64,000 nt of DNA from a virus: IMG/VR virus record IMGVR_UViG_3300022839_000007, positions 32,001 through 96,000 of that record; one strand, written 5' to 3'. This document shows positions 28,513 through 51,923 of this stretch, piece by piece. Within the stretch, counting starts at the first letter, position 1; each line of letters starts with the position of its first letter. The notes below the pieces were generated by a model, which was not told the DNA's origin, ran no database searches, and saw nothing but the letters and a program-made list of their open reading frames with translations. Position numbers and translations under genes: made by a program.

Positions 28513-28535
28513 AAAGATCATGTAGGAGTAAACAA

Positions 28536-29552: not shown

Positions 29553-29555
29553 CAC

Positions 29556-29584
29556 TTGACAATATTAAAATAATATTATATACT
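29556..29584 (+). promoter_or_regulatory. Sigma70-type promoter TTGACA-N17-TATACT heading the enzyme cluster
   Basis: ttgaca atattaaaataatatta tatact. Confidence 0.75.
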
Positions 29585-29606
29585 TTGAATAGAGTAGGAG
29601 TATTAG

Positions 29607-29954
29607 ATGGACGAACGTTTAGAAAAAGCATTAGAGTTTAGTAATTATATGATTACGTTAAGTAATCAAAAACGAATACTCGGTGAACAATTTAATGAAA
29701 ATGTAATATATTATTTTAACGGTGGCGAATTCACAGCATCTCCTGAACTTATGAGTTTTTGTCAATGCCTGTTATTTCGTTCTCAAACAGATACAATCCT
29801 AATTGATAATAACGGATTGCCTGTTGAAATTGAAAATTTACAATTATTCTCTGATAACATCGCTAGCATATATTACACAGCATCAAATAAATATTTAACT
29901 GAATATAACAAGTTAAAAAAGAATCGAACAGTTAGTGGTATTATAGATTTATGA
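29607..29954 (+). CDS. Hypothetical protein, possibly a DUF4376-like tail-assembly helper
   Basis: AGGAG RBS; YFNGGEF...LIDNNGLPVEI pattern; weak resemblance only. Confidence 0.5.
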   Translation: MDERLEKALEFSNYMITLSNQKRILGEQFNENVIYYFNGGEFTASPELMSFCQCLLFRSQTDTILIDNNGLPVEIENLQLFSDNIASIYYTASNKYLTEYNKLKKNRTVSGIIDL

Positions 29955-30781
29955 CTAAAGGCGCGGTGCTAATTGCATGTAATAATGCTCAGATTGACTA
30001 TGTTAAACAAGCTGTATTTTGTGCTCAACGAATTATAAAGTTTTTAAATATACCAGTTACATTAATTACTGATAATATTGCGTATGTCAATACTTCCTAC
30101 CCGGATCATCCATTTGATCAAATAATATTATCATCAGATAATAACTACACTCACAAAAAATACAATGATGGTAATTTTATAAGATGTAATTTAGAGTTTA
30201 AAAATACATCTAGATCGGATGTTTATGATCTAACACCGTACGACGAAACCATTCTGATGGATACCGATTTTTTGTTAGGCAACGATGTTTTTCTAAATTG
30301 CTTTTTACAATCTAGTAATTTTATGATTTATAAGAATGGGGTTGAGTTGTCAGGATGGAGAAACTTACAGGAATTTGAATATATTAGCGATTCCGGTATA
30401 GACTTCTATTGGGCAACCGTTATATTTTTTAGAAAAAATTCTACAAACAAGATCTTCTTTGATTTATTAAAACATATTAAAGAAAATTGGACTCATTATA
30501 AAAGACTATATAGTCTAACTACTAGCACGTTTAGGAATGATCATGCATTTAGTATTGCATTACATATCATGAATAATTATCAACCAGGAAACTTTTCTAA
30601 GTCGCTTCCTGGTAAAATGTTTTACACTACTGATAATGATATTTTAATAGCACTTACGGATAATACGTTTAAATTTCTAATAGAAAATAAAAATTCGCAG
30701 TATTTTCCAGCAAGTATTACGGATAGCAATATCCATATAATGAATAAGTTTAGCCTGAATAGGATTATTGACTGTGGCTAA
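29951..30781 (+). CDS. GT-A fold glycosyltransferase (GT8/mannosyltransferase-like)
   Basis: YDLTPYDETILMDTD DxD motif; RNDHAFSIA. Confidence 0.7.
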   Translation: MTKGAVLIACNNAQIDYVKQAVFCAQRIIKFLNIPVTLITDNIAYVNTSYPDHPFDQIILSSDNNYTHKKYNDGNFIRCNLEFKNTSRSDVYDLTPYDETILMDTDFLLGNDVFLNCFLQSSNFMIYKNGVELSGWRNLQEFEYISDSGIDFYWATVIFFRKNSTNKIFFDLLKHIKENWTHYKRLYSLTTSTFRNDHAFSIALHIMNNYQPGNFSKSLPGKMFYTTDNDILIALTDNTFKFLIENKNSQYFPASITDSNIHIMNKFSLNRIIDCG

Positions 30782-31619
30782 TTTTACAATGTTAGCACAG
30801 AACAGCAAACATAATTATGTGCAGCAAGCCTACTTATGCGCTCTGAGTATTCGTGCAACTAATCCAAATAGCAAAATATGTTTAATTACCAACGACATTG
30901 TAGATGCAATCACTTCTGCAGTGTTCGACGATATAGTAGCAATTCCATGGAACGATCATGCAGCTAATAGTGAATGGAAAGTAGAAAATAGATGGAAACT
31001 TTATCATGCCACTCCTTACGATCGTACTATAGTACTTGATACCGATATGTTGGTATTAGAAAATATCGAGCATTGGTGGAACTTTTTGCAAACCAAGGAT
31101 ATCTTTTTTACTTCAACTGTATTAACATATAGAAATACTCCAGTAACTAGCACATATTATAGGACTGCATTTGCTGTTCATAATTTACCCAACATATATG
31201 CTGGCTTGTATTATTTTAAAAAGTCAGCCGCGTCTCACAAATTTTTTAAGTGGCTAGAAATTGTAATGAACAATTGGCAATTGTTTTATTACCATTATGC
31301 CGGAGGTAGTCATTTTCAAAAATGGCCAAGTATAGATGTTAGTGCAGCAATTGTAATTAAGATATTGGATATCAAAAATGCAGTTACTAGTAACACATAT
31401 TTTCCTAATTTTGTGCATATGAAAACACATTGTCAAGATTGGAAGGACCAGGTGTCTGATAGATGGCAAGACACTGTTTCCACTTATTTAGATCAAAATC
31501 TAACTTTAAAAATTGGTAATTATACACAACGTGGCATTTTTCATTATACTGAAAAAGATTTTATTACCAATGAACTAATAACCATTTACGAAGATTACAT
31601 AAAGAAACACAATGAATAA
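30768..31619 (+). CDS. GT-A fold glycosyltransferase (paralogue of 29951)
   Basis: YHATPYDRTIVLDTDML; FVHMK. Confidence 0.7.
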   Translation: MTVANFTMLAQNSKHNYVQQAYLCALSIRATNPNSKICLITNDIVDAITSAVFDDIVAIPWNDHAANSEWKVENRWKLYHATPYDRTIVLDTDMLVLENIEHWWNFLQTKDIFFTSTVLTYRNTPVTSTYYRTAFAVHNLPNIYAGLYYFKKSAASHKFFKWLEIVMNNWQLFYYHYAGGSHFQKWPSIDVSAAIVIKILDIKNAVTSNTYFPNFVHMKTHCQDWKDQVSDRWQDTVSTYLDQNLTLKIGNYTQRGIFHYTEKDFITNELITIYEDYIKKHNE

Positions 31620-32193
31620 TTCAATAATTTATATTACTACACAGCGTTACATATACTTTGACGCTACCGGAAATATACTTAGTGTTTCTAACAATAATAA
31701 TACTCTCGGTAATAATATTAAAGTTGAATTTAACCAGGTCGAATCTCTTATATCGGGCAAAGAACACTTTCATCATTATCGAGTTATATTTGATACTATT
31801 ACCAACACTTATGTTTTATTTAACGTGTGCAACGAAGGCAATTTAATTTTTTCTATTGATTTGGCCATACACAAAATTTCACAAACACTGACCAAAATAC
31901 CCGATTTAATCATCACGCAGGACACTGTCACTCGTGTTTGGAAATTTGAATTAAATAAGGCAATTAGAGAAAATTTTCAAACACTAAATGTCGAACCGTT
32001 GTTAACATTCAGTATTTCTAAATACAACGATTTACACCAACTTGAACAATTTATTAGCTTACCGATAGAGAAATTAATCAGCGATTGCGTTGTAACTGTT
32101 CCGTATGAATCCAGTATTCCTGTTGGATTAACTAAGATGAGTATATATACTACAAAGAGACTAAACACATATTATCACAAGGTATTATTATGA
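31612..32193 (+). CDS. Hypothetical protein
   Basis: 193-aa ORF translationally coupled on both sides. Confidence 0.6.
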   Translation: MNNSIIYITTQRYIYFDATGNILSVSNNNNTLGNNIKVEFNQVESLISGKEHFHHYRVIFDTITNTYVLFNVCNEGNLIFSIDLAIHKISQTLTKIPDLIITQDTVTRVWKFELNKAIRENFQTLNVEPLLTFSISKYNDLHQLEQFISLPIEKLISDCVVTVPYESSIPVGLTKMSIYTTKRLNTYYHKVLL

Positions 32194-33110
32194 ATAATAA
32201 ATTTCGAGTAGCAGATTGCGACATAGTGTATTTAAGTTACGACGAGCCGAATGCCGAAAAAAACTATGCTGATTTATGTAAAAAGATACCGTGGGTAAAA
32301 CGAGTACACGGAGTTAAAGGCAGCGATGCAGCACATAAAGCCTGTGCTAAAATAAGCGAAACACCGCGATTTATTACAATCGATGGTGACAATATTATTG
32401 ATGCTAGCTTTGTAAACAAGGAATTTGATTTAGATGCAAATAAAGATTTAGCATCGTGTGTTATTAGTTGGACAGCTCGCAATACCATTAATGGATTGAT
32501 GTACGGAAATGGCGGAATCAAATGCTGGCCTACGCAGTATGTTCTAGATATGAAAACGCATGAGAACGCGCCTGCGGATAACGTACATGCGCAGGTAGAT
32601 TTTTGCTGGGATGTTGAATACATTCAAATGAATAGTTGCTACAGCGAAGTTATGAACAATGCTACACCTCAACAAGCATGGCGTGCCGGATTCCGAGAAG
32701 GGTGTAAAATGGCATTAGACCGCGGAGTGCGTGTTAGTCTGGAGGATTTTAAAAAGAACCATTGGAAAAATTTACATCGATTGTATATTTGGTTAATGGT
32801 AGGCGCTGATGTAAAAAACGGATCATGGGCTATATACGGAGCACGTCACGGATTGTATCAAACAATGTGCACCGACTGGGACTTTGTAAATGTGCGAGAC
32901 TTTGAGTATCTTAACCAAATGTGGAATACCATTGATATTACCGAAGAATCGTTACTTAAGTCAATTGACAATTTAGGAACTGATTTAAAATTACATTTAG
33001 GATTGCCTATAGGAATTAATCCCTTAACAGCTGACCAAAGTACATTTTTTAAAACAGTATATCAAAACCCGTCAAGAGTAGCTAATCAACAGTTTATAGA
33101 TCGAGAATAA
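32190..33110 (+). CDS. GT2-like glycosyltransferase
   Basis: DIVYLSYDEPNA...RVHGVKGSDAAHKACA...FITIDGDN; AWRAGFREGCKM. Confidence 0.65.
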   Translation: MNNKFRVADCDIVYLSYDEPNAEKNYADLCKKIPWVKRVHGVKGSDAAHKACAKISETPRFITIDGDNIIDASFVNKEFDLDANKDLASCVISWTARNTINGLMYGNGGIKCWPTQYVLDMKTHENAPADNVHAQVDFCWDVEYIQMNSCYSEVMNNATPQQAWRAGFREGCKMALDRGVRVSLEDFKKNHWKNLHRLYIWLMVGADVKNGSWAIYGARHGLYQTMCTDWDFVNVRDFEYLNQMWNTIDITEESLLKSIDNLGTDLKLHLGLPIGINPLTADQSTFFKTVYQNPSRVANQQFIDRE

Positions 33111-33111
33111 C

Positions 33112-34509
33112 TTGAAAGATTTAAAAAAATGGAAAAAGGATAATCTTGATACAGTAAGTTGTACGTTTTGTGTTGCAAAATGGAAACAAGTTACTTTGCA
33201 TCTTCAAAACGGATTTACCCATAGCTGTCATCACCCTACGTCTCATAAAATTCCGTTAGATGAACTAGTAAATAACCCTAGCGCATTACATAACACAAAA
33301 TTTAAAAAATTACAGCGTAAGTCTATGCTGGAAGGAATCCGTCCAGACGAATGCGATTACTGTTGGCGAGTAGAAGATGCTCCTAATAATCCAATCAGTG
33401 ATAGAACATATAAATCTGCAGAGTCATGGGCAGAAGAATACATTGAAGAAATAATTGCTAAACCGTGGGACGACGATGTAACTCCTAGCTACTTAGAAGT
33501 ATCGTTTAGTAGTGTATGCAACTTCAAATGCAGCTATTGCTCTCCTCAGGTTAGTAGTAAATGGATGGAGGAAATACAACAGCACGGAGCATATCCTACC
33601 TCTAATAAATTTAACGATATAACGTATCTAGACTCTCAAGGAATGATGCCTATACCGCACCGAGTAAAAAATCCGTATGTTGACGCATTTTGGAAATGGT
33701 GGCCAGATGTTTCTCGAGATCTAAGGCATTTTAGAATTACAGGAGGCGAACCGCTGTTATCTAAGGATACGTTTAAGATACTAGACGACCTAATAGCAAA
33801 TCCGCGCCCTAATATGGAGTTTTCTATTAACAGTAATATGTGTATTCCTGATGCAGTTTTTAATAAATTTATAGAAAAAATCAAAATTATTTGCAACGAA
33901 AATAAAGTAAAAAAGTTTAAGATATTTACTAGTGCAGAGGCATATGGTGCTCAGGCAGAGTATATTCGACACGGGCTGGATTATAATCAATGGTTAGACA
34001 ATATACGTCGAGTTTTGAGAGAAATACCAAACTGTACATTTACTTGCACAAGCACTTATAATCTATTGAGTCTCTTTAGCTTCGATAAGCTGTTGGTTGA
34101 TATACTAGAAATTAAAAAAGAGTTTGGCGGTCCTAACAAAAATATTCCAATTATATTAGATACTCCTTATCTAAGATATCCTGCTCACCAGGCTGTATTT
34201 ATAGCAGATAATAGTTGGAATACTCGGTATTTAATACCTCAAGCAGAATTTATTAAATATCATCTTGAAGATAAAACCGTCGCCAACAAGACAAATAATG
34301 GATTTTACAGTTGGGAATTAGATAAGTTTAAGAGAATTTCAAGCATACTATTAGAAGAAAATTTGTCAACTTCTGAACTGTGTATACGTAGATCGGACTT
34401 TGTTAAATTTGTAGACGAGCATGACAAAAGACGTGGAACAACCTTTTTAAAAACATTTCCAGAGATGGCAGAATTTTACAAAAAAATATCCAATGGTGAA
34501 ACATTTTAA
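33112..34509 (+). CDS. Radical SAM enzyme with N-terminal twitch/SPASM-like module
   Basis: CNFKCSYC, ITGGEPLL; N-terminal FCVAKW...SCHH...ECDYCW. Confidence 0.9.
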   Translation: MKDLKKWKKDNLDTVSCTFCVAKWKQVTLHLQNGFTHSCHHPTSHKIPLDELVNNPSALHNTKFKKLQRKSMLEGIRPDECDYCWRVEDAPNNPISDRTYKSAESWAEEYIEEIIAKPWDDDVTPSYLEVSFSSVCNFKCSYCSPQVSSKWMEEIQQHGAYPTSNKFNDITYLDSQGMMPIPHRVKNPYVDAFWKWWPDVSRDLRHFRITGGEPLLSKDTFKILDDLIANPRPNMEFSINSNMCIPDAVFNKFIEKIKIICNENKVKKFKIFTSAEAYGAQAEYIRHGLDYNQWLDNIRRVLREIPNCTFTCTSTYNLLSLFSFDKLLVDILEIKKEFGGPNKNIPIILDTPYLRYPAHQAVFIADNSWNTRYLIPQAEFIKYHLEDKTVANKTNNGFYSWELDKFKRISSILLEENLSTSELCIRRSDFVKFVDEHDKRRGTTFLKTFPEMAEFYKKISNGETF

Positions 34510-35202
34510 ATGTATGACATAGTATTTATTAGTTATCAAGAACCCAATGCAGATGAAAATTACGCTGCATTAAAGGAAAAGTTTCCAACGGCTAAACGCA
34601 TACACGGTGTTGCAGGAATTCATCAAGCCCATATTACAGCAGCAGCAAAATGTTTTACAAAAATGATATGGGTTGTAGACGGCGATGCAATCATATTACC
34701 TACTTTTGATTTTACATATAGCGTAGATTTATATAATTTAGAAACAGTACATGTATGGCGGAGTCAAAATCCTATCAACGATCTTGTATACGGATACGGA
34801 GGAATAAAGTTGCTTCCGAGGAATCTCACAATAAACATGGATGTTAGCAAGCCAGATATGACTACTAGTATCAGTTGCAATTTTCGAGCAATGTCTGAAA
34901 TTTCAAACATCACATCTTTTAACACCGACCCGTTTAGTACCTGGCGTAGTGCATTTAGAGAATGTACCAAGCTTGCATCTAAAGTAATTGACCGACAGAA
35001 CGACAACGAAACACAACAAAGATTACATACATGGTGTACAGTAGGAGTAGATAGGCCGTATGGCAACTATGCACTTGCTGGAGCAAAAGCAGGAGCAGTA
35101 TACGGTTTTCAAAATCAAACTAATATCGTTGCTCTTAAAATGATCAACAACTTTAGTTGGCTAAAGGAGAAGTTTGATGATACATTCAAGCAAGTTTTTT
35201 GA
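34510..35202 (+). CDS. GT2-like glycosyltransferase (paralogue of 32190)
   Basis: YDIVFISYQEPNA...WVVDGDA...TWRSAFRECTKL. Confidence 0.65.
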   Translation: MYDIVFISYQEPNADENYAALKEKFPTAKRIHGVAGIHQAHITAAAKCFTKMIWVVDGDAIILPTFDFTYSVDLYNLETVHVWRSQNPINDLVYGYGGIKLLPRNLTINMDVSKPDMTTSISCNFRAMSEISNITSFNTDPFSTWRSAFRECTKLASKVIDRQNDNETQQRLHTWCTVGVDRPYGNYALAGAKAGAVYGFQNQTNIVALKMINNFSWLKEKFDDTFKQVF

Positions 35203-35821
35203 TAATTTTGGACAATTTATTTCTCGATACCCTGATACAGATTTAATTGATCTGTTTTCAAAGGGACAAATAGAATCTAAGCGTTGGTTAGTAAATACGG
35301 TAATAAATTTAAACTTAGATTTAGGATCTGTCTTTTTATGTGCAGGGTGGTATGGAACTCTGGCAACGTTTATATTTGAATCTGGCATACCACTAACACA
35401 AATTAGAAGCTTTGATATAGACCCAATTTGTGCTGGTCGTGCTGATTCATTTAATCGTTGTTGGGTAATAGATGGGTGGAAATTTAAAGCTAGTACACTT
35501 AATATACACGATATGACTTATCCATTAACATACACAACAATTAGAGCTAACGGTACGGAGGCAGGCTTATGTGAAACTCCAAATTCAGTCATTAATACAA
35601 GTTGCGAACATATTGATAATTTTTCTAAATGGTATAAAAAAATTCCCAACGGAACACTGCTAATACTACAAAGTAACAATTTCTTTGAAATATCAGATCA
35701 TATTAATTGTGTCAAAAATAATGACGAATTTGCATTGCAGACCCCTATGTCTGTTGAATTATTTAATGACGAACTAGAATTACCAGCGTATAAAAGATTT
35801 ATGCGAATTGGATATAAATGA
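35177..35821 (+). CDS. Class I SAM-dependent methyltransferase-like protein
   Basis: GQIESKRWL, LCAGWYG (motif I), SFDIDP, VINTSCEH. Confidence 0.65.
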   Translation: MIHSSKFFDNFGQFISRYPDTDLIDLFSKGQIESKRWLVNTVINLNLDLGSVFLCAGWYGTLATFIFESGIPLTQIRSFDIDPICAGRADSFNRCWVIDGWKFKASTLNIHDMTYPLTYTTIRANGTEAGLCETPNSVINTSCEHIDNFSKWYKKIPNGTLLILQSNNFFEISDHINCVKNNDEFALQTPMSVELFNDELELPAYKRFMRIGYK

Positions 35822-36534
35822 AAATACAAATTTTATCAATGCCGCGTACCGGTAGTTCTTATTTAAAAACAATGTTGAATTTTCAAATGACAAAATATGT
35901 AAATTATTTTACTATTTCGGAACCGTTTAATGATAGCAAACAATCCCTTATTAAATATCAGAATAGAAATACTATAATTAATAGTATTAAATCATCCGAC
36001 AACGCATTGGTTAAGAGTCACATACACGAACTAATTAATATACAACATACTGACGTTTTTAAAGAATATTCTGCCATAGACTGGTACACGATTTGTCTTT
36101 TGCGCAGAAATATATTTACATTAACATTAAGCAGAGTAATTGCAATTAGCACCGGCGTATGGGACAATCAAAATTTTAAAAATTTAATTATGCATATTGA
36201 TTTTGAAATTTTTAAAAATTATTTAATCCAAACATTAAACTGGATAAGATTTATTAAACTTAATTCGTTTAATTTTATATTTCATAAAGTAGTTTTTTAC
36301 GAAGATCTATTATTTAAATCGGAATCCGATTTAAATAATATAGGTATACCGGTAACTCATACTACTTATTATGCACCATCTCGACTATATTTAAAAAGAG
36401 ATATAATTAGCAACTATAACGAACTCTATCAGAACACTATTGAGTTTACTAGAGGAATTCAAGACTTATCGTTTGACGGTGTATATTTACAGGATAACAT
36501 AATTTTTAACAATAATTCAACTTTGAATATATAA
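35818..36534 (+). CDS. Sulfotransferase-family protein
   Basis: MPRTGSSYL 5'-PAPS loop; SEPF; LLRRN...S 3'-PB motif; FYEDL. Confidence 0.75.
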   Translation: MKIQILSMPRTGSSYLKTMLNFQMTKYVNYFTISEPFNDSKQSLIKYQNRNTIINSIKSSDNALVKSHIHELINIQHTDVFKEYSAIDWYTICLLRRNIFTLTLSRVIAISTGVWDNQNFKNLIMHIDFEIFKNYLIQTLNWIRFIKLNSFNFIFHKVVFYEDLLFKSESDLNNIGIPVTHTTYYAPSRLYLKRDIISNYNELYQNTIEFTRGIQDLSFDGVYLQDNIIFNNNSTLNI

Positions 36535-36578
36535 GGGTTTTGTGGTCATAAGTACTATGTAATTAATTGGAGACTAGG

Positions 36579-37727
36579 TTGTCACTTATCAAATGTTTAC
36601 ACATTACAAAAGGTATGCGTATCTCTTTTAGAGAAATTTGCAATCAAGTATATTTTTTTAGAAAACCATGCTGTGAAATGCACACGTCGGATATGCCAGC
36701 TGATATATCTAAATTTGTCCCCTATGTGGATGTTACTAGTATTTTTTCTCACCCTACGATAAAATACTTTAATAGCTGGGTAAATACAGAAGAAATAATG
36801 CATCCTAGTTGCCAACCCTGCAAAATTAAAGAATCATTAGGTATACACAGTGCAAGGATGCAATCAAATCTACATACAGATGCACCGTATGACATATTAC
36901 TATTAGATGTTGTAATTGGAAATGCTTGTAATCTTGCTTGTCCATTTTGTGATAGTACTTCTAGTTCATTGATAAACAAAATTTCAAAAAAACAAAATAT
37001 TGCCGAGCTTCCTACAAATTGGAAGACAGCAACGCACAAGCTTGCTTCGTCTAACAGTATTTCTAAAATAATATCCGAGTTGTTAACAACATATAAAGTT
37101 AAACAGCTTAAATTAATAGGCGGCGAACCATTTTTAAAAGAAAATTGGGAATCAATTGGCAATATTTTAGATCAAGATTATTGTAAAGATCTTGAAATAT
37201 CAATTACCTCTAACGGAACGGTATTGAACAAAAGAATTCTACAGAGTCTAAAAAATACAAAAACTACCGAATTAAGAATTAGCGTAGACAGTATAGGAAG
37301 CAACTACGAATTTATTAGATGGCCGCATTCGTGGAAAAAGATGGAAGACAACTTAAATTTTTTAAAAAACAACACAGCTAATAATATTCAAATATCAGTA
37401 GCAAATTTAATTTCTGTTTTAAATTTTGAATTTCTTCCAGAGATCGAAGAATATTTTTCAAATTTGCCATTTTTTTGTGGATACAATTTTGACATTAAGC
37501 CAAAAACATCATTATTACATTATTCCAATATTCCAAATAATATAAAAATACAAGTTAGAGATCGAATTAAAAACAAAGATTTAAAAAAAATGATCGAACT
37601 CTATGAAACGGATGTAGACTCGGTACTAATTCAAAAACAATTTGAATTTTTTTTAAAACATAGAAAATTATCCACGGCTGCAAATGCAGTCGGTCCTATG
37701 ACTGCTAAATGGTTATCATTAACATGA
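36579..37727 (+). CDS. Radical SAM enzyme with N-terminal twitch module
   Basis: CNLACPFC, LIGGEPF, YEFIRWP; N-terminal KPCC...SCQPC; TTG at 36579 follows GGAG (track start 36567). Confidence 0.9.
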   Translation: MSLIKCLHITKGMRISFREICNQVYFFRKPCCEMHTSDMPADISKFVPYVDVTSIFSHPTIKYFNSWVNTEEIMHPSCQPCKIKESLGIHSARMQSNLHTDAPYDILLLDVVIGNACNLACPFCDSTSSSLINKISKKQNIAELPTNWKTATHKLASSNSISKIISELLTTYKVKQLKLIGGEPFLKENWESIGNILDQDYCKDLEISITSNGTVLNKRILQSLKNTKTTELRISVDSIGSNYEFIRWPHSWKKMEDNLNFLKNNTANNIQISVANLISVLNFEFLPEIEEYFSNLPFFCGYNFDIKPKTSLLHYSNIPNNIKIQVRDRIKNKDLKKMIELYETDVDSVLIQKQFEFFLKHRKLSTAANAVGPMTAKWLSLT

Positions 37728-38692: not shown

Positions 38693-39363
38693 CACAGATT
38701 GTATCAATACAAAGTAATCGCCCTCAGAATATATTTTACGTTCATTGGAATTTAGGAAAACGCTGCAATTTTGATTGTTCGTATTGTGCCGACAGTTTAC
38801 ATGACTTTATTAGCCCTCATCGTTCGTTGGAAAATTTAATTACAATAGCAGATAATATGAAGAAAAACATTCTACACGATAAAATTAGGATATGGTTTAC
38901 AGGTGGAGAGCCTACGGTTAACCCTAATTTTTTAAAATTTTGCAAGTATTTGTACGCAGATGGCAGGTTTTTGTTAGGATTAAACACTAATGGAAGTAGA
39001 ACCACTCGATATTATTTAAATTTATTAGAGTGCGTGGATACAATACAATTTAGTAGTCATTTTGAATTTTTAAAAGATGACAAATTTAAAGAAACATTGA
39101 CTACACTAGTTAAAGAAACGTACGGTTCAGGGAAGGCAGTTAATATAAACTTAATGATGGAGCCTGAATATTGGGATAGGGCGGTATCTCTCATTAAACA
39201 TTGCAAACAGTTTTCTATTGAATATCATATTAAACGAATACGTAATAAGGACAACTTTACTTCCATTAACAGACAATATTCTCCAATATACACCGATGAC
39301 CAGTTAAGATTTATCACAGATGCCGAGTATAGACATACTTATTTAGAGGATTACAATGAGTGA
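38689..39363 (+). CDS. Radical SAM core domain (no auxiliary module)
   Basis: WNLGKRCNFDCSYC, FTGGEPT, NTNGSRT. Confidence 0.9.
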   Translation: MTQIVSIQSNRPQNIFYVHWNLGKRCNFDCSYCADSLHDFISPHRSLENLITIADNMKKNILHDKIRIWFTGGEPTVNPNFLKFCKYLYADGRFLLGLNTNGSRTTRYYLNLLECVDTIQFSSHFEFLKDDKFKETLTTLVKETYGSGKAVNINLMMEPEYWDRAVSLIKHCKQFSIEYHIKRIRNKDNFTSINRQYSPIYTDDQLRFITDAEYRHTYLEDYNE

Positions 39364-41554: not shown

Positions 41555-41594
41555 CAAATATTATTCTATTTTTAATCCAATATAAAAATAATAT

Positions 41595-41602
41595 CATAAA
41601 TA
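41595..41602 (+). promoter_or_regulatory. Possible late promoter (CATAAATA)
   Basis: Consensus match in a very AT-rich spacer, so chance is possible. Confidence 0.4.
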
Positions 41603-41635
41603 TAAGAAAATATCAATAATTTTAAAATAACAAAC

Positions 41636-42274
41636 ATGATAACACATAATATTAACAATATTAATACCTTTAATGTATATCCCGGAACTACCGGAGTATG
41701 TGTAAGCGGCGGCGCCGATAGTGCGTTGCTCTTGTATTTTAATTTAAAGTACGCAATTTCTAAAATACATATATTTTCTTTGGCTAATCAAAAAAAATTA
41801 AGAAATTCTCGATTAGCAATTAATGTTATTAGTAAATGCGCAGAATTAACTAACAATTTCAACTTTGAGCATCATATCATGTATGCCAACGCACAAACCA
41901 AAGAAAATTTATTTATATTACCGGATTTATATATTACAGAAAATAAAATTAACACGATTTGCACCGGTATAACTAAGAATCCTCCTAAAACTGTAACTGA
42001 CAATTTTTTATTGCCAACTAAGGAAACCCTTGAAAGAAATCCCGAGGTAGTTAGACCGACATTATATAATAACACATTATATCTACCATGGACTAATATC
42101 GACAAACGCGAAGTGTGTAACATTTATCAACAATACAATTTGTTAGAAACTTTGTTTACAGAAACACGAAGTTGTGAATGGGATCATACAGTTCCTACCT
42201 CCGATCCTGGCGATTTTCATTGCGGAAAATGTTGGTGGTGCGAAGAGAGATTGTGGGGGTTTGGTAAATTATGA
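41636..42274 (+). CDS. QueC-like PP-loop ATPase (7-cyano-7-deazaguanine synthase fold)
   Basis: VSGGADSA PP-loop; TRSC...HCGKCWWCEER zinc site. Confidence 0.7.
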   Translation: MITHNINNINTFNVYPGTTGVCVSGGADSALLLYFNLKYAISKIHIFSLANQKKLRNSRLAINVISKCAELTNNFNFEHHIMYANAQTKENLFILPDLYITENKINTICTGITKNPPKTVTDNFLLPTKETLERNPEVVRPTLYNNTLYLPWTNIDKREVCNIYQQYNLLETLFTETRSCEWDHTVPTSDPGDFHCGKCWWCEERLWGFGKL

Positions 42275-42795
42275 AATATGCGATTACCGGGCATACTAGC
42301 GGTATCGGGCATGAATTATTTAAACAATTGTCGCCTGATATTATAGGATTTAGTAAAACAACAGGATATGATATTTGCCAAACTAAAGATAGGCAACAAA
42401 TCATTGACGAATCTTACGAATGCGACATATTTATTAATAACGCACATAACGGCTATTGCCAAACAGAGATGTTATACGAAGTGTTTAATACATGGAAAGA
42501 TATGGATAAATTAATAATTAATATAGGAAGCGATACAACTTGTGGAATAAAAAACAAAGCTTGGCAATATAGTGCCGAAAAAGCAGCATTAGATAAGGCA
42601 AATGAGCAACTTGGATTTTTAAAGAAAGCTTGCAAAGTATCTATGGTACGATTTGGATTTGTAGGAACACCAAGAATTATAGAATATTTTAATCCAAAAA
42701 CATTTATAACACTTGAAGACTCGGCTAAAATTATAATATGTCAACTGCCTTGGATGAAAAAATATAGATTATTAGACTTTACAATAACATCTTAA
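42271..42795 (+). CDS. Short-chain dehydrogenase/reductase (compact)
   Basis: ITGHTSGIG, FINNA, IINIGS, YSAEK (YxxxK). Confidence 0.8.
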   Translation: MKYAITGHTSGIGHELFKQLSPDIIGFSKTTGYDICQTKDRQQIIDESYECDIFINNAHNGYCQTEMLYEVFNTWKDMDKLIINIGSDTTCGIKNKAWQYSAEKAALDKANEQLGFLKKACKVSMVRFGFVGTPRIIEYFNPKTFITLEDSAKIIICQLPWMKKYRLLDFTITS

Positions 42796-42805
42796 TGGAA
42801 TATTA

Positions 42806-43420
42806 ATGAATATATCAAATAATTTTAACACAACAAATTTTAATCAACTCTTATCTTTGCCTATATTGGACTTACAAGACGAACTGGTCAAATTAAAAGA
42901 TGCAGGACTAGTTAATTGGTTTCAAAAATCTAATGGCGAATATATAGCAGATCAAATATGCATCACCTCGATAAACGGTCAGGAGGATAATATATTTTAC
43001 GGGCGAGGCAGTTTATATCTTGATTGGGATAATTCGTATAATGATAGCAAAGGTAATTTACAAGCTCCTTTACGAGATACTCCGTTGCAAGAGATAGATT
43101 TTTGTAAATTATGCACGCCATTTATTGGTACATTATTTGAAACAGCATTTATTGCACTAACTGAAAAATATCACATTGGACGGATGCGGGTAATGAATAG
43201 TAAACCAAAGACATGTCTCACTTGGCATATCGATGACACTTACCGCATACATTATCCTATGAAAACACAAGAAGGATGCTTTATGGTAATCGAAGACGAA
43301 ATACGCCATTTACCTAAATACACTTGGTGGGAAACAGATACGCTTAAATCTCACACTGCATTTAATGCAAGCACACAAATTCGAACGCACTTGGTTGTTA
43401 ATGTAATTGGCACAAAATAA
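42806..43420 (+). CDS. 2OG-Fe(II) oxygenase, aspartyl/asparaginyl beta-hydroxylase-like
   Basis: GRMRVM...WHID...RIHYP...HTAFN...RTHLV. Confidence 0.8.
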   Translation: MNISNNFNTTNFNQLLSLPILDLQDELVKLKDAGLVNWFQKSNGEYIADQICITSINGQEDNIFYGRGSLYLDWDNSYNDSKGNLQAPLRDTPLQEIDFCKLCTPFIGTLFETAFIALTEKYHIGRMRVMNSKPKTCLTWHIDDTYRIHYPMKTQEGCFMVIEDEIRHLPKYTWWETDTLKSHTAFNASTQIRTHLVVNVIGTK

Positions 43421-43917
43421 TGAATTTTGATATTATTAAGTTAACACAGTATTACGATATAGAAAAATTAACAGTTGACGTTTTAAAATTAGTTCAGGAC
43501 AATACAACTTCGGTGACTCTCTCAAGTACTATGACAGACTTTGATATGTATACTTCTCATACTACTCCGTTGCAAGGCACGGCAGTTTTAGAATCCGATT
43601 TTACACATTTACATCCGTCATTGCGTAATACGGTATTTGAAGAAATTTGGAAGAATAATATAGACACAATTGGACGATTTAGAATTATGATATTACAACC
43701 AAATACGTCGTATTTGCCCCATTTTGATGCCGATTACAGACACCATTTGGCTGTAATCACCAACCCGGATGCGGTGCTTCAAATTAATAACTGTAACTAT
43801 CACCTTCCTTCAGATGGATCTGTGTATCTCTGTAATACTAGAAAATTACATACTGCAATAAACAACGGAGTAACTAGAAGAATACATTTAGTTTGGAATG
43901 ATAGGAATTGTGAATGA
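43420..43917 (+). CDS. 2OG-Fe(II) oxygenase, aspartyl/asparaginyl beta-hydroxylase-like
   Basis: RFRIMIL...PHFD...RHHLAVITN...HTAIN...RIHLV. Confidence 0.85.
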   Translation: MNFDIIKLTQYYDIEKLTVDVLKLVQDNTTSVTLSSTMTDFDMYTSHTTPLQGTAVLESDFTHLHPSLRNTVFEEIWKNNIDTIGRFRIMILQPNTSYLPHFDADYRHHLAVITNPDAVLQINNCNYHLPSDGSVYLCNTRKLHTAINNGVTRRIHLVWNDRNCE

Positions 43918-44723
43918 TAACGGTATACGAAGATGGAACTCGATGCGTTACATACTGTGATTCAACTTACTACGATCTAGCAGAGTTTTCTAGTAATAAA
44001 AACATTATACTACTTAGCGGCGGCATAGATTCGCAATCGTTGATATCTTACTTTACAATAAATAATATTTCGTTTATTGCATATTTCTTTGATTATGGAA
44101 TTAATAAGTACGATAAGGATTATGCAATTAAATTTAAAACCAATGTACTTAAATTTAATTTAGATGATTTATATTTTAACAAAGAAATACATAAATATTA
44201 TTCTAAATTTTGCGAATGCACTAGTCCTCAACTAGCTGTACATATTTACGGCATAGACTGCTTATTTAAAAAATATCCAGATTATAACATTATAATGCCA
44301 GGAATGCCTTTATTTTTTAATTTAAACGATGATAATAGTATAGCAAATTCGTTACCCGACTTTACTCAATTATCGTATCTGCGATACAAAGAAAAAACAA
44401 ATAGTAAATTATATCCATATTTTTGGGCAGAAAGTAAGCAAGGCCAAGAAATGCTTAACTCGGCAACACAGTTAAATTTTTCTATCACCGACTATCAAAA
44501 AAAAATATTATTATATCGAGAATTAAATCTTGACATTTCTCCTCAAGAAATCAAAAAAACTGGATTTGAGGAATACAAAGACTACTTAAAAAAAGAAAAA
44601 TTAATAGACTATAATAAAGAGTTTAGACGACCGATATCAAAAGAAAAAAAATGCATTGGAGTATTTGAAGATTCGCTAATGTCGGCCAAATTAAAAAACT
44701 ATATTAATGACTGGAAAGCTTAA
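43914..44723 (+). CDS. PP-loop ATP pyrophosphatase (asparagine synthetase C-domain-like)
   Basis: LLSGGIDSQ; CTSPQLAVH; KKTGFEE. Confidence 0.65.
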   Translation: MITVYEDGTRCVTYCDSTYYDLAEFSSNKNIILLSGGIDSQSLISYFTINNISFIAYFFDYGINKYDKDYAIKFKTNVLKFNLDDLYFNKEIHKYYSKFCECTSPQLAVHIYGIDCLFKKYPDYNIIMPGMPLFFNLNDDNSIANSLPDFTQLSYLRYKEKTNSKLYPYFWAESKQGQEMLNSATQLNFSITDYQKKILLYRELNLDISPQEIKKTGFEEYKDYLKKEKLIDYNKEFRRPISKEKKCIGVFEDSLMSAKLKNYINDWKA

Positions 44724-45388
44724 TGATAGAAAATATTGCATCAGTTCCACTACTAGTAAAAAGTCAATTTAAGTCTATTGTACTCGAGAATATGATAGAC
44801 TCTCTCGAGTATGCTCAAGGGTGTATAATAGACGATACCGGCAAACTATTTAAGTGGAATCGAGCCGAATATTGTTTGTATTATAACAATATTGATAATA
44901 CTATTCCTGCCAATTGGAGCACAAATATAGAACAGGTTAAATTGCATACTGCATTTGTAACTAGTGAAGTTACCCGTTTGCGTAAATATATAGTTAACAA
45001 CCTGCCTATTGATGTGTCGTATATTTCAATTCAAAAATCAAAAGGAAATCTATATCCGCATTTTGATATCACTGACCAGTCAACAGTAACTACATTACCA
45101 ACAGATTTGTCTTTAATAAAAATAATGCTAGATGCAAATACTTCAATTGATAAATTATATTTTACAAATGGCATAAGTAACTTTTATTTTACAAAAAATC
45201 ATTTGCCACTCGATACAAATATATTTGCATGGAGTTCTAAACGATATAAACACGGAGTAACTGATCTGACTCTAGATGCTAATCGAATACTTATTAACAT
45301 ATATGGTACATTTAATCATAATAACTATTATAACCTAATACAGGAGAGTATTAAACAATATCAACATGTAGCATTAAGAGTAGTATGA
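44723..45388 (+). CDS. Probable 2OG-Fe(II) oxygenase/cupin-fold protein
   Basis: LYPHFD...YKHGV...RILINIYG (HxD...H...R). Confidence 0.55.
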   Translation: MIENIASVPLLVKSQFKSIVLENMIDSLEYAQGCIIDDTGKLFKWNRAEYCLYYNNIDNTIPANWSTNIEQVKLHTAFVTSEVTRLRKYIVNNLPIDVSYISIQKSKGNLYPHFDITDQSTVTTLPTDLSLIKIMLDANTSIDKLYFTNGISNFYFTKNHLPLDTNIFAWSSKRYKHGVTDLTLDANRILINIYGTFNHNNYYNLIQESIKQYQHVALRVV

Positions 45389-46317
45389 TACTCATCTAGA
45401 AACTCTATTATAATTTTAGTTTCGTAACCTATTTTAAAATCTTCAATTATTTTTGAAAAATTCCATATATTATATGTTTTTCTTAATTCTTCTAGCCCGG
45501 TTAATTTTAGCCTTCTAAGGGGTATATTACAATATCCGAGTTCTTGGTAAAGAGTTTTCTTGTCGGCATATAAAAAACAATTATAATTTAAAAGTGCAGA
45601 ATGTACTAGGTCCGACTGTAAATTGTTAGCTAATAAAAACGAGGATGTTATCGAAATCTTTTGAACTTTACTCCACCGATCTAACGCACATATATTATCC
45701 GATGGATACGAAAATTTAAGTTCATTATTAACTATTGCAGGCTCAGGAATATCGCCGGAAATAACTAAATGACAGTCGTTGCTAAGTTTAAGACAGTCTA
45801 ACGAATACAGAAACAACATAACTTCAGGAAATGACGTGCGGTACCTAAGCCCGTACCAAAGGTGATGATTACTATTAAAAAAGTTAGTAGCATCGATTTT
45901 TATGTAATTTATTTTAAAATTAGCCGGTAACGTTCTCTGTAAATCTAAGTAATCCTCTTTATTACAAGTATAGTCAAAAAAGACCAACTGAACAATTGAT
46001 GCAACTGGGAGGAATGATCTAATAAGCATTTCGCTATCAATTCCTCCGGATACTAATAATATGATAGTTTTTTTAGTTTCTGTAAGATTGCGGGCATAAT
46101 TGTATGCATGATGTAAAAATGACGAATGCTGATCAGAAAACGAAGTACTAACGTTCCAAGCAAAAGCTGTATTAAATTTAAAATCTACCAACCCGATCTC
46201 ATCTATATATCCGTATGATAGTGGGTTATTGTTAATATTAAAGTTTTCGTTAAATCCATAATACATGTTATTATAGCAAATTGATCCCGTTCTAGGAGTT
46301 TTACTTACAGAAAACAT
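45361..46317 (-). CDS. PP-loop ATP pyrophosphatase (paralogue of 43914)
   Basis: LVSGGIDSE; KLTGLEE. Confidence 0.65.
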   Translation of the reverse strand: MFSVSKTPRTGSICYNNMYYGFNENFNINNNPLSYGYIDEIGLVDFKFNTAFAWNVSTSFSDQHSSFLHHAYNYARNLTETKKTIILLVSGGIDSEMLIRSFLPVASIVQLVFFDYTCNKEDYLDLQRTLPANFKINYIKIDATNFFNSNHHLWYGLRYRTSFPEVMLFLYSLDCLKLSNDCHLVISGDIPEPAIVNNELKFSYPSDNICALDRWSKVQKISITSSFLLANNLQSDLVHSALLNYNCFLYADKKTLYQELGYCNIPLRRLKLTGLEELRKTYNIWNFSKIIEDFKIGYETKIIIEFLDEYHTTLNATC

Positions 46318-47126
46318 TAAAACTTTTTTGATAATATGGAGAATTCATAGTTATTTTTTTTAATTGGATTAATAGTAAATGTCTGGGTTTCGGATCCAGC
46401 TGTAATACAAATATCCACTATCTTGTTAGTGTGTCCTAATAAAAATCCATCTCGAAAAGTAATTCCCTGAGGTAAATTTTCTGCAACTGCATTAGGGGCT
46501 GATGTAATTAAGAATCCAAACAATTCGTTACTCTTTACTTCAAATTCGTGTAGATTATTAAAGTTCCATATTGGCATAGTTATCTCCTTCTGTATATTTA
46601 TCTTACTAGCATAGCCGAATGCATAAAAGTCGCCCAATATAAAGCTGTTATCCTTTAACAATTGACTAATTATTTTAATTGGAGACACTAGGCGGTACCA
46701 TTGCATGTCGACATCGCAATATTTAAAATAACATTTTCCAGTTAAATCCATAGAAGATATTGGAGTAACGTTAGGATGTATTCCTGGAAAATTACAATGA
46801 TCGGAAATATTATTAAACGAGCAGTACAGTTGATCTTTAGAAAAATTGTACATAAGTTGGTCTATTCTAGTTGACACCGCACTACTTCCAAACGGCATAA
46901 ACACTGGATTTTTGATGTCCGACTTTAATATGTTTAACAAAATAGAATGCACCGAATCTTCAGTAAAGTTAGTAGGAATTACATGTACGTTAATATCAAA
47001 TTTTGTAAAGGAGAGTGCAGTGAAATATAGATGCGAATTGTGAATAACGGATTGCGTTTCAAAACTTACATTAGAATTATTAATTCTAATAGGATAATAC
47101 CCATCAATTAGTATTGGAGAAAGCAA
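46317..47126 (-). CDS. Degenerate subtilase (S8)-like protein with He_PIG-like C-terminus
   Basis: ILIDG, HNSHL, VFMPFG, FPGIHPNVTPISSMD occur in S8 order; no GTSxA motif; NLPQGITF...LLG. Confidence 0.4.
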   Translation of the reverse strand: MLSPILIDGYYPIRINNSNVSFETQSVIHNSHLYFTALSFTKFDINVHVIPTNFTEDSVHSILLNILKSDIKNPVFMPFGSSAVSTRIDQLMYNFSKDQLYCSFNNISDHCNFPGIHPNVTPISSMDLTGKCYFKYCDVDMQWYRLVSPIKIISQLLKDNSFILGDFYAFGYASKINIQKEITMPIWNFNNLHEFEVKSNELFGFLITSAPNAVAENLPQGITFRDGFLLGHTNKIVDICITAGSETQTFTINPIKKNNYEFSILSKKF

Positions 47127-47598
47127 TATAACAGTCTGTCATCTGATTGTTAATTTTAAAATAGCTAGGAATAGGTCCTACTATTTTAAAATTAAGCTTT
47201 GTTAATAATGCAATACTAGCCAAGTTATCAATATCAATTGTGCATTTAACTCGATTAATATTTGCATCGGCTAAGAATCTATCAAGATTAGCTTTTAAAA
47301 TACTGGTAGTAATTCCTTGCGAAGCATATTCTTCATCGATGCAATATGACAGCGATCCTGATTTATAAAATGTGCGATTAATTTCTTCAATATAGTACAT
47401 GCCTATTATTATATTGTTATATTTTAAACAATATACTAGCATTTTTTTTTTATTAATCATCTCGTAAATTAATGAAAAAAAGTTTTCGTCTTTATAAGAT
47501 GGCAAGTTATCAAATTTTTTAAAATACGATATATTTTTATCATAAAATTTAATTATATTAAAATTATCAAACTGTGTAATAGGCTCTAACAAATACAT
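47104..47598 (-). CDS. GNAT acetyltransferase, RimJ/RimL-like
   Basis: LSYCIDEEYASQGITT...NLASIALLTKLNF. Confidence 0.85.
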   Translation of the reverse strand: MYLLEPITQFDNFNIIKFYDKNISYFKKFDNLPSYKDENFFSLIYEMINKKKMLVYCLKYNNIIIGMYYIEEINRTFYKSGSLSYCIDEEYASQGITTSILKANLDRFLADANINRVKCTIDIDNLASIALLTKLNFKIVGPIPSYFKINNQMTDCYIAFSNTN

Positions 47599-48051
47599 TT
47601 ATAACTCCATAATAGCATAACAATTTGGACCAAATTCGACATTTTTATTAAAAAATTTTCCTATCTTTTTAAATCCAAATTTTTCATAACTATACAACGA
47701 AGTCTTGCGCGGAATTGTCCATAATATTTTACATTTTTCATTAGTTGCTTGAATTTTTATTTGGTTAAGTAACATTTTACTTAATCCTCTACCACGAAAT
47801 GATTCGTCGATCCACAATCCACGAGTCCGATATTCAGACTCCTGAGTTCGATGACCAGATATTACTCCAACAATAGTATTGTTAAATTTAATGCAAAAAA
47901 AACTAGGAATATACTTACGATATATTTCCATGTCGTACCCGCTACTCAACATCATACTGCTCATACTATTAATAGGAGAAATACGCCCCGGCCACAAAAT
48001 TTTCCAAAAAGGAAGAGTAGCATCAAACGTAGATGTATGACAGTTAACCAA
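47599..48051 (-). CDS. GNAT acetyltransferase
   Basis: RGLWIDESFRGRGLSKML...YEKFGF. Confidence 0.85.
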   Translation of the reverse strand: MVNCHTSTFDATLPFWKILWPGRISPINSMSSMMLSSGYDMEIYRKYIPSFFCIKFNNTIVGVISGHRTQESEYRTRGLWIDESFRGRGLSKMLLNQIKIQATNEKCKILWTIPRKTSLYSYEKFGFKKIGKFFNKNVEFGPNCYAIMEL

Positions 48052-48934
48052 CAGTTCCGTCGTCGAGGTTAATCCATGTATTATTTTGATATCCTTGAAA
48101 TCGATTATCAGTAGAGTTGTAAACTACCATTCCGTTTTGTCCAACCGGACGAGTAGCAGTAGTATATAATCCAAATTGCATATATCCCACTGACATTGCT
48201 TCGGAGACTTGCCCAGTACCGCTAACAATTAAGTTGCCACGAACATCTAGAGCGGAACTAGGAGTTAACGTACCGATTCCAAAATATTCCCCGGTCCATG
48301 TTGCATATGAACTACTATTTGCAAATGAACCAGATTGATCAACTCCTAGAGCAATCCATGCATCGCCTCCTGATATACTAGATTTTATTAACTTACCGTT
48401 GATGTCATTTTTTTCAAACATGATTCTACCGTAAACTAACGAGTTGTTTGTTAATGTACCAGCGGATGTTGCAGTAAATGTTACACTACTCGCATTATCC
48501 TGTGATTCAATTGCTAAGTTAGTACTATCTGCATTATTAGTTGTAATAACTACTCCGGCTGCCGGCACATTAATAATACTAGTATTAATAGTACCAGTGA
48601 TTACTCCTGTAGATGTATCTACTAATATAGTGCTATCATCGCCTATTATGTTAAATCTATAAGAGCTACCTTCGATTATTTCATTATTTCCTGGAACAAA
48701 CTGTGTACCGTTCCATTCTAATACATCTCCAACTAGCAAAGGAGTACTTGATATATCAACATCCGTTAGCTGATCAATACCAAATAGTGCAATATTGTTA
48801 ATAAGATTACCGCCTACTGTTGCACCGTCACCTGCATAAAGTCCTTTAGTGTCAGTGACGTAGATTAACTCGCCTTCTTGCGGAATAATTGTTAATCTTT
48901 CAGCATCAACGCCGCGTCTTAGTCTTAAAGCCAT
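48044..48934 (-). CDS. Fibre-like virion protein with major-tropism-determinant-type N-terminal domain
   Basis: MALRLRRG...PQEGELIYVTDTKGLYAGDG; LTDVD and GIGTLTPSSALDVRG motifs; C-terminal GMVVYNSTDNRFQGY. Confidence 0.75.
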   Translation of the reverse strand: MALRLRRGVDAERLTIIPQEGELIYVTDTKGLYAGDGATVGGNLINNIALFGIDQLTDVDISSTPLLVGDVLEWNGTQFVPGNNEIIEGSSYRFNIIGDDSTILVDTSTGVITGTINTSIINVPAAGVVITTNNADSTNLAIESQDNASSVTFTATSAGTLTNNSLVYGRIMFEKNDINGKLIKSSISGGDAWIALGVDQSGSFANSSSYATWTGEYFGIGTLTPSSALDVRGNLIVSGTGQVSEAMSVGYMQFGLYTTATRPVGQNGMVVYNSTDNRFQGYQNNTWINLDDGTVG

Positions 48935-48940
48935 TAGAAT

Positions 48941-48981
48941 CTCCTAAAGTGATTGCTTTAATATATTTATCACTTTAGGAG
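48941..48981 (-). promoter_or_regulatory. RBS-occluding hairpin with late promoter GATAAATA at the 5' arm/loop junction
   Basis: Perfect 13-bp inverted repeat CTCCTAAAGTGAT/ATCACTTTAGGAG; AGGAG SD in the 3' arm 6 nt before the ATG. Confidence 0.8.
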
Positions 48982-51891: not shown

Positions 51892-51923
51892 TGTATAACC
51901 TCATTGTTTGTTGCTAATATAGT

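Follow-up and report, generated by a model that had tools for sequence, protein, structure and literature searches.

The window analyzed here is a stretch of 64,000 nucleotides (positions 32,001 to 96,000) of IMG/VR virus record IMGVR_UViG_3300022839_000007, and our subject is an island of enzyme genes at positions 29607-48934 of that window, located at the end of a tail-fibre gene block and directly downstream of two paralogous genes, FIB1 and FIB2. The source is a single linear record of 157,788 bp with a CheckV completeness of about 45%, and hence represents only part of the genome of a phage that is roughly of jumbo size.

The island comprises 21 or 22 open reading frames (ORFs) on the + strand and five on the - strand, organized in two convergent arms. 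A first-pass annotation made from the DNA alone had described it as a two-arm cluster of mostly coupled genes, and the ORFs conform to this description: at 17 of the 21 junctions of the + arm (29607-45388), neighboring genes overlap or are separated by at most 1 nt, with longer spacers of 54 nt (ahead of s115, the first gene of the arm), 32, 81 and 10 nt. The - arm runs through its five ORFs from 48934 down to 45361, and the arms meet in a 28-nt overlap of their last genes. The island also has a distinct base composition, with a G+C content mostly of 0.29-0.33 between 29400 and 48000 (0.37 at 32-34 kb), compared to 0.37-0.41 in its flanks.

As also noted in the first-pass annotation, the + arm follows tail-fibre genes. 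The fibre block (21600-27576, + strand) encodes proteins of 203, 680, 606 and 487 aa, the last three of which have a common N-terminal domain, and its PHROG matches are to a tail protein, a virion structural protein and a tail fiber protein (E 7e-18). The block leads into FIB1 (27603-28487, + strand; 294 aa) and its paralogue FIB2 (28536-29552, + strand; 338 aa; E 5e-41). FIB1, for which Pfam and PHROG scans returned no match, combines N-terminal helices with a C-terminal beta-sandwich and is a candidate acceptor or fibre-associated protein. The structural model of FIB2 (predicted local distance difference test [pLDDT] 75) likewise consists of N-terminal helices and a beta-sandwich; it has no match in the PDB and matches three uncharacterised viral models (E 1e-17). 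Neither protein contains cysteine, and Ser, Thr and Asn together make up 31% of FIB1. The FIB family encompasses at least 2230 proteins, all of them unnamed, and at least 516 IMG/VR loci; in some relatives (loci L203, L224, L227 and L260) the FIB domain is part of far longer proteins of 745-1498 aa.

A conserved core downstream of FIB

The genes that follow FIB2 encode several proteins that are recognizable only through family profiles or structural models. Single-sequence Pfam and PHROG scans were negative for s115, the GT8-like pair, u193 and MT215, described below, and, further downstream, for the sulfotransferase-like protein and the products of ORFs 39534, 43914, 44723 and 46317 (ORFs are designated by their lowest coordinate), although phrog_1903 is listed for one member of the GT8-like pair. 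Searches of the PDB by sequence or profile returned nothing useful for the GTx, FIB and s115 proteins or for the products of 35818, 46317 and 44723. The operon opens with s115 (29607-29954, + strand; 115 aa), a conserved first gene that is present in all cassette loci and for which Pfam and PDB searches gave no relative. It is followed by two paralogous GT8-like glycosyltransferases (29951-30781, 276 aa, and 30768-31619, 283 aa, both + strand; E 2e-10 to each other), the second being the one assigned to phrog_1903. A profile built from 30 sequences of this family aligns with glycogenin-1 and glycogenin-2, both GT8 enzymes, over 115 N-terminal residues that include the DxD motif (E 8e-7 to 1e-4, query positions 5-128). 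Y17, D104xD106, D197 and H262 do not vary within the family, and at least 90% of members have K266; these Tyr, Asp, His and Lys residues occur in the same order as the metal- and nucleotide-binding residues of GT8 enzymes. The resemblance to glycogenin is nonetheless partial, since only the N-terminal half aligns and neither sequence taken singly matches Pfam Glyco_transf_8 at E 0.01.

The GT8-like pair is followed by u193 (31612-32193, + strand; 193 aa), which holds a fixed position in the cassette, varies between 160 and 447 aa in relatives and has no match in family searches, and by GTx1 (32190-33110, + strand; 306 aa), a divergent transferase of the GT-A fold. The AlphaFold model of GTx1 (pLDDT 90, predicted TM-score 0.90) matches WrtF and SunS in Foldseek (E 5e-4), with A64R of chlorovirus PBCV-1, a virus with capsid glycosylation, also among the folds listed. 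A VIA comparison (Z 9.3 against a tool background of Z 7-8; root-mean-square deviation 3.3 Å over 137 residues) places glycosyltransferases and nucleotidyltransferases in its top rows. At the sequence level GTx1 yields only sub-threshold matches in Pfam and PHROG, and at least 90% of its relatives have the D65xD67 motif. A shorter paralogue, GTx2 (34510-35202, + strand; 230 aa; E 7e-31), has homologues in Ralstonia jumbo phage RsoM2USA and in IMG/VR loci. The four GT-A glycosyltransferases of the first-pass annotation are thus accounted for by the glycogenin profile of the GT8-like pair, the GTx1 model and the GTx2 paralogy. In some relatives (L183, L192 and L218) the GTx domain is fused into proteins of 530-1370 aa.

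The gene between GTx1 and GTx2 (33112-34509, + strand; 465 aa) encodes a full-length member of the N-twitch radical S-adenosylmethionine (SAM) family NF033640 (N_Twi_rSAM; 332 bits against a cut-off of 170, model positions 2-398). The C136x3C140x2C143 motif, four N-terminal cysteines (C20, C39, C81 and C84) and a GGEP motif are invariant among 24 sequences of 45-100% identity, the four cysteines marking a twitch-like auxiliary cluster module. Homologues of this protein number at least 7958 in metagenomes, with up to 73% identity, and the closest among the matches listed come from Tara Oceans assemblies. No characterised member of NF033640 was found, and no substrate is known for this family, which is central to the island and counts its members in thousands. 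The core ends with MT215 (35174-35821, + strand; 215 aa), a probable class I methyltransferase. The methyltransferase call of the first-pass annotation is retained here as a weak one, because the profile of MT215 matches a putative methyltransferase (3dtn), KsgA and spermidine synthase at E 0.008 and weaker; its relatives keep a GxWYG motif and DxD-type residues.

A near-DNA search of GenBank phages returned no match to the island. At the protein level, RsoM2USA is the sole match to the cassette proteins among 50,697 GenBank phage records, and its genes gp355 to gp347, part of a cassette spanning gp355-346, are collinear with positions 27603-35821 of the window. Beyond this one cultured phage, the core is conserved across hundreds of contigs from aquatic phages. 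The first-pass annotation had named linkage to fibre genes in relatives as a test of its proposal, and such linkage is evident from both ends of the core. Among 85 loci anchored on the radical SAM gene, 31 carry FIB, s115, GT8, GT8, u193 and GTx in that order, often followed by MT215 and the radical SAM gene. Conversely, s115 and the GT8-like pair lie directly after FIB in 57 of the 62 FIB-anchored loci with at least 3 kb of downstream sequence; of the five remaining loci, four or five lie on truncated contigs, with L192 as the clear real exception. FIB-anchored relatives also show the same series of proteins of about 200, 680, 630 and 495 aa ahead of FIB as the window. The radical SAM gene is common in these FIB-anchored cassettes and not universal. 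Catalytic motifs are kept across relatives, indicating that the island enzymes are not decayed. The genes 3' of the core vary between phages among the IMG/VR relatives, in agreement with the anticipated division between a conserved glycosyltransferase core and variable tailoring genes. Judged by gene content across relatives, the 19 kb is a conserved core (27603-35821) joined to a lineage-variable toolkit, not one fixed pathway. The full phage arrangement of fibre genes plus cassette was also observed on contigs filed under bacterial metagenome-assembled genomes (L147, L149, L102 and L159), labelled Candidatus Neomarinimicrobiota RS350 (contigs of 153 and 335 kb), Fischerella and Flavobacteriaceae; these are probably phage contigs binned with cells.

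The company kept by the core points to glycan chemistry. The variable tails of its relatives consist mostly of genes for NAD-dependent epimerase/dehydratases, GDP-mannose dehydratase and sugar nucleotidyltransferases, together with mannose-6-phosphate isomerase-type, RmlD-type, UDP-glucose dehydrogenase, carbamoyltransferase and HAD phosphatase genes. In about 48 other phage loci the radical SAM family lies beside two GT7-lectin fusions, a GT2 enzyme, a methyltransferase and epimerases. We considered whether this arrangement was a version of the cassette; by hhalign its upstream families are unrelated to the cassette families, and we regard it as a separate module with a common radical SAM enzyme. 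In cellular genomes the radical SAM family is concentrated in Bdellovibrionota chromosomes, where its recurrent neighbors are GT4 glycosyltransferases and an ABC-2 transporter pair. NF033640 therefore keeps the company of glycosyltransferases in all three settings, and the building and tailoring of glycans put forward in the first-pass annotation is upheld by the gene contexts of the relatives. In some loci of these predatory bacteria (L144, L139 and L156), as many as about ten radical SAM genes of the NF033640 type follow one another, near GT4 and ABC-2 transporter genes.

Promoters of the island

The 54-nt spacer between FIB2 and s115 contains a sigma-70-type promoter, TTGACA-17-TATACT (29556-29584, + strand), which heads the enzyme operon. 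To place this element in context, we compared the FIB-to-s115 gap of 59 distinct relatives' sequences, 48 of which match the sigma-70 consensus at 11 or more of 12 positions, with control gaps of 30-110 nt on the same strand of the same loci, of which 1 of 106 reaches that level (Fisher p ~1e-29, a value that overstates independence because the loci are related). A perfect consensus, TTGACA-17-TATAAT (12/12; 28484-28512, + strand), lies 24 nt upstream of FIB2; the + strand of the 158-kb contig has just one other intergenic match that reaches 11/12. The first FIB gene has no sigma-70-type site and is closely coupled to the preceding fibre gene; the sequence TATAAATA occurs ahead of it at 27572-27579 and ahead of the first FIB gene in 14 of 63 loci. 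This T4 late motif is not enriched in the window (7 observed against 15 expected), and terminators in the window do not exceed chance.

The conservation of this promoter suggests that the enzymes are probably made by host RNA polymerase with sigma-70, independently of the late fibre genes, and hence that expression of the operon is not a simple matter of coupling to those genes. In T4-type phages, sigma-70-type promoters constitute the early class. The conserved promoter provides a handle on timing, which could separate virion decoration from modification of the host surface.

The variable toolkit and the - arm

Downstream of MT215, the + arm continues with a sulfotransferase-like protein (35818-36534; 238 aa). 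The sulfotransferase of the first-pass annotation is kept as a tentative call on Atlas features, which score 0.96-0.97 against Stf0/Sulfotransfer_3 clusters, and on fold, with a TM of 0.71 against clusters of the sulfotransferase and NodH-like kind; Pfam and PDB sequence searches gave no match. Four further radical SAM enzymes follow on the + strand. Radical SAM 2 (36567-37727; 386 aa; PF04055 57 bits) is of the N-twitch type and scores 149 bits against NF033640, below the cut-off of 170, and the other three score 26-42 bits. Radical SAM 3 (37709-38692; 327 aa; PF04055 55.6 bits) has an N-terminal Cys-rich module, and radical SAM 4 (38689-39721) is split into a core (38689-39363, 224 aa; PF04055 47 bits) and a subsequent Cys-rich module (39356-39721, 121 aa). 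The fused and the split enzyme, side by side, are made of the same two parts in opposite order: residues 23-107 of the 37709 product match 39356 and residues 137-327 match 38689. Radical SAM 5 (40538-41554; 338 aa; PF04055 43.4 bits) has an N-terminal Cys-rich region. All five radical SAM genes of the island score above the PF04055 cut-off (32-57 bits; cut-off 29.5) and show a visible CX3CX2C motif, matching the number first annotated; an NCBIfam scan added weak partial matches to peptide maturases. Between radical SAM 4 and radical SAM 5 lies an unfamiliar protein (39714-40541, + strand) without a family match, whose ORF is open from 39534 and which probably starts at ATG 39714 or 39693, as judged from the 8-nt overlap pattern at other junctions.

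The next + strand gene (41636-42274; 212 aa) encodes a PP-loop enzyme with an SGGADS motif and a C-terminal CxxCxxC. It matches Pfam QueC at 28.4 bits (cut-off 22) over its C-terminal half only, and scores 19.5 bits against NCBIfam QueC TIGR00364, well short of the cut-off of 150, from which we judge the product to be QueC-like and not QueC. Two other PP-loop enzymes carry SGGIDS motifs: an AsnB/QueC-like protein (43914-44723, + strand; 269 aa), placed by Atlas among viral Asn_synthase/QueC-like clusters (score 0.97, TM 0.63-0.76) and without relatives in a single-protein scan of IMG/VR, and its paralogue in the - arm (45361-46317, - strand; 318 aa; E 3e-13; Pfam QueC E 0.013). Together they make up the three adenylating enzymes of this type that had been expected. 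The short protein encoded at 42271-42795 (+ strand; 174 aa) has a TGxxxGIG motif, and its proposed membership of the short-chain dehydrogenase/reductase (SDR) family is weak, with an adh_short score of 18.6 bits, below cut-off.

Three Fe(II)/2-oxoglutarate (2OG) oxygenases had been proposed, two of which are confirmed. The adjacent genes 42806 and 43420 (42806-43917, + strand; 204 and 165 aa) score 35.2 and 32.5 bits against Asp_Arg_Hydrox (cut-off 22.6), have invariant H141, D143, H183 and H195, and produce a profile match to Cpz10 (7v4f; E 4e-24), a beta-hydroxylase acting on a uridine-linked caprazamycin intermediate (PMC9814697). With Cpz10 as the nearest solved relative, their substrates may be small and nucleotide-linked or sugar-borne rather than protein Asp/Asn. 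The third candidate (44723-45388, + strand; 221 aa) was rejected as a 2OG enzyme, with an hhalign probability of 4% and no match in the PDB or Pfam, and is left as an unfamiliar protein with no family assigned.

Homologues of hydroxylase 42806 were located in 13 IMG/VR loci, in about half of which they lie amid N-twitch radical SAMs, QueC-like or SDR genes, a split radical SAM with its Cys-module, GTx with MT215, or a GNAT gene. Five of the 13 loci (L086-L089 and L091) have a homologue of 42271 adjoining the 2OG gene, homologues of 41636 sit within radical SAM arrays of other phage loci, and L088 has a homologue of the GNAT gene 47599 on the same strand as its 2OG gene, 1.2 kb further downstream. 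The recurrence of these mixed neighbors is indicative of a shuffled toolkit, not of unrelated neighboring genes.

In the - arm, the 45361 gene is preceded by an unfamiliar protein (46317-47126, - strand; 269 aa). It had been read as a subtilase-like remnant, for which Pfam and PDB searches offered no support, and no family is assigned to it. The remaining genes are as annotated: two GNAT acetyltransferases (47104-48051, - strand; 164 and 150 aa), above the Pfam cut-off, and a fibre-like protein (48044-48934, - strand; 296 aa) with Mtd_N at residues 4-39 (PF18454, 28.4 bits; cut-off 26.3). Late control of the Mtd_N gene is predicted from one imperfect motif, GATAAATA, about 30 nt upstream of it.

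Predicted pathway, its acceptor and known systems

Taken together, these data indicate that the island very probably encodes a glycan pathway. In the scheme that we propose, FIB, s115, the two GT8-like enzymes, predicted to be retaining, u193, one or two GT-A transferases, the N-twitch radical SAM and the probable methyltransferase would assemble an oligosaccharide from nucleotide sugars. The toolkit of four radical SAMs, the sulfotransferase-like protein, three PP-loop enzymes, the SDR-like protein, two hydroxylases and two GNATs would modify these sugars, both through radical chemistry and through steps of sulfation, amidation or adenylation, reduction, hydroxylation and N-acetylation. The operon would be driven from its own sigma-70-type promoter just downstream of FIB, and transfer of the glycan to FIB or to a neighboring fibre protein would yield a glycosylated virion appendage. 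No transmembrane-like segment was detected in any cluster protein, and the island holds no flippase, polymerase, lipid-carrier transferase or exporter, so the acceptor is probably cytoplasmic. We give even odds to the virion, or FIB, being the target, and hold in equal balance the fuller proposal of a cytoplasmic system that builds and tailors a glycan at the end of a jumbo-myovirus tail-fibre block, with FIB or a neighboring fibre protein as acceptor.

FIB is the most likely acceptor candidate. It is tied to the cassette in very distant phages, is Cys-free and rich in Ser, Thr and Asn, and has a beta-sandwich model. In RsoM2USA, gp417 (L262, 7924-8784) is a FIB paralogue located two genes downstream of ORF415, which is named a tail-fibre protein in the paper describing that phage, and a phage that groups with RsoM2USA, XacN1, has glycoproteins in its virions (PMC5852040). 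The gp417 gene belongs to a separate tail-fibre block after ORF415 and ORF416, with no enzyme cassette adjoining.

Several observations weigh against this proposal. The glycan, its acceptor and virion modification are predictions from gene content. An early-class promoter would fit modification of the host surface or of DNA at least as well as virion decoration, and the fibre nature of the unnamed FIB family is deduced from its position and a modest model (pLDDT 75, no PDB match). The nearest solved relative of the hydroxylases works on a nucleoside antibiotic intermediate, not on a glycoprotein. Moreover, the radical SAM gene is absent from some cassettes and is therefore accessory, and the island itself contains no nucleotide-sugar genes, so that the pathway must use host precursors.

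Among other explanations, the enzymes could remodel the host surface, altering the lipopolysaccharide O-chain or capsule of the infected cell, for instance against superinfection or re-adsorption of progeny. Such a role has been proposed for GT8-rich islands (PMC7029224), the sigma-70-type promoter suggests expression from early on, the Bdellovibrionota radical SAM relatives adjoin an ABC-2 exporter and GT4, typical of surface polysaccharide loci, and the sulfotransferase-like protein resembles carbohydrate sulfotransferases. Nevertheless, we consider this explanation unlikely: the missing membrane and export functions listed above count against it, and the association of the cassette with FIB extends to very distant phages with necessarily different hosts, which is unexpected for enzymes fitted to the O-antigen of one host.

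A lower probability still attaches to a soluble product, either a free glycosylated or nucleoside-type small molecule or a non-virion cytoplasmic acceptor, in which case the adjacency of FIB would be historical. The Cpz10 profile match (E 4e-24), the resemblance of the radical SAM, PP-loop, SDR, GNAT and sulfotransferase mixture to natural-product clusters and the absence of an identified acceptor are compatible with such a product, but the island has no exporter, resistance gene or scaffold-forming synthase, the invariant cassette consists of transferases with FIB, s115 and u193 and not of small-molecule enzymes, and the relatives carry ordinary nucleotide-sugar genes.

Hypermodification of DNA, with sugars attached to and edited on modified phage bases, would accord with an early-type promoter and a QueC-like gene within the island. 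We regard it as very improbable, since that gene recurs in radical SAM/2OG arrays of other phages and scores far below the QueC equivalog threshold, the cellular context of the radical SAM family is exported polysaccharide, the contig (of a record about 45% complete) has no thymidylate-synthase-like hydroxymethylase, and the cassette is tied to the fibre block and not to DNA-metabolism genes. Least probable of all is editing of the kind seen in ribosomally synthesized and post-translationally modified peptides, in which radical SAMs and hydroxylases would cross-link, epimerise or hydroxylate side chains of FIB or another protein and sugars would be secondary; twitch/SPASM enzymes often mature peptides, the NCBIfam scan gave partial maturase matches and Asp_Arg_Hydrox is classically a protein hydroxylase family, but the Cys-free FIB1 and FIB2 exclude thioether links and every NF033640 context examined is rich in glycosyltransferases and nucleotide-sugar enzymes.

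Returning to decoration of the virion, we tentatively extend the proposal to a large jumbo-phage clade of water and soil with a self-contained, cytoplasmic protein glycosylation system that would be dedicated to FIB and expressed from a host-type promoter, in which NF033640 would represent a new class of carbohydrate-editing radical enzymes, also present in Bdellovibrionota surface-polysaccharide loci. If the product does decorate the virion, the system would far exceed in complexity any virion glycosylation so far known to be encoded by a phage, and a glycan coat could affect host recognition, particle stability and escape from host or grazer recognition in the ocean. The core cassette is present in a phage in culture, RsoM2USA, so the question is open to a direct test.

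The closest described counterparts of the island are the host recognition clusters (HRCs) of pelagimyophages and cyanomyophages, variable islands in which fibres, GT8 enzymes, radical SAMs and hydroxylases follow a giant structural gene (Zaragoza-Solas et al. 2020, PMC7029224); radical-SAM-rich T4-like marine genomes had been noted in 2017 (PMC5332604). Like an HRC, the island is variable and low in GC, lies within or at the end of the block of structural genes, behind a giant one (here encoding 4605 aa), and brings together tail-fibre genes, GT8-type glycosyltransferases, radical SAM cassettes and genes of the Asp/Asn hydroxylase type. It differs in that this phage groups with Atu_ph07/SCTP-2/PA5oct-type jumbo phages and not with pelagimyophages, in that the cassette families match RsoM2USA only among the GenBank phage records, and in that the role proposed, and so far only proposed, for HRC glycosyltransferases is modification of the host O-chain, not virion decoration. 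The island is of the HRC kind, belongs to another phage lineage and is distinguished by a specific cassette and promoter that are both conserved. The searchable literature contained no description of the cassette and no paper joining phage, radical SAM, glycosyltransferases, virion and glycan.

A second likeness is to the systems of mycobacteriophages, in which capsid and tail-tube glycosylation is described (Freeman et al. 2023, as cited in PMC12619734), chlorovirus PBCV-1 and XacN1, where soluble, virus-encoded GT-A transferases beside structural genes are believed to attach sugars to virion proteins within the cytoplasm. These systems have few transferases and are not known to include a radical SAM array, PP-loop enzymes, hydroxylases or a sulfotransferase, and their glycans have been seen on virions, whereas the present island is known as a set of genes.

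The flanks of the island agree with a position where the structural genes end. In its left half, the window codes for baseplate hub and wedge proteins, including a gp6-like wedge (4322-7762; phrog_10646, E 1e-291) whose nearest cultured relatives, at about 36% identity, are Salicola SCTP-2, Agrobacterium Atu_ph07, PA5oct-type Pseudomonas phages and other jumbo myoviruses. It is followed by the giant virion structural protein (7762-21579; 4605 aa; phrog_10938, 1064 bits), an internal stretch of which resembles the head-closure protein Hc2; its RsoM2USA counterpart, of 2541 aa, was confirmed in virions by mass spectrometry (PMC8504454). To the right, the - strand at 50614-55818 encodes an HNH-endonuclease-like protein (425 aa), an ATPase and an exonuclease. 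HRCs are bounded by the neck gene gp14, which was not searched for here, and the right border of this island is formed by these nuclease and ATPase genes, placing it at the boundary between the structural block and a DNA-metabolism block.

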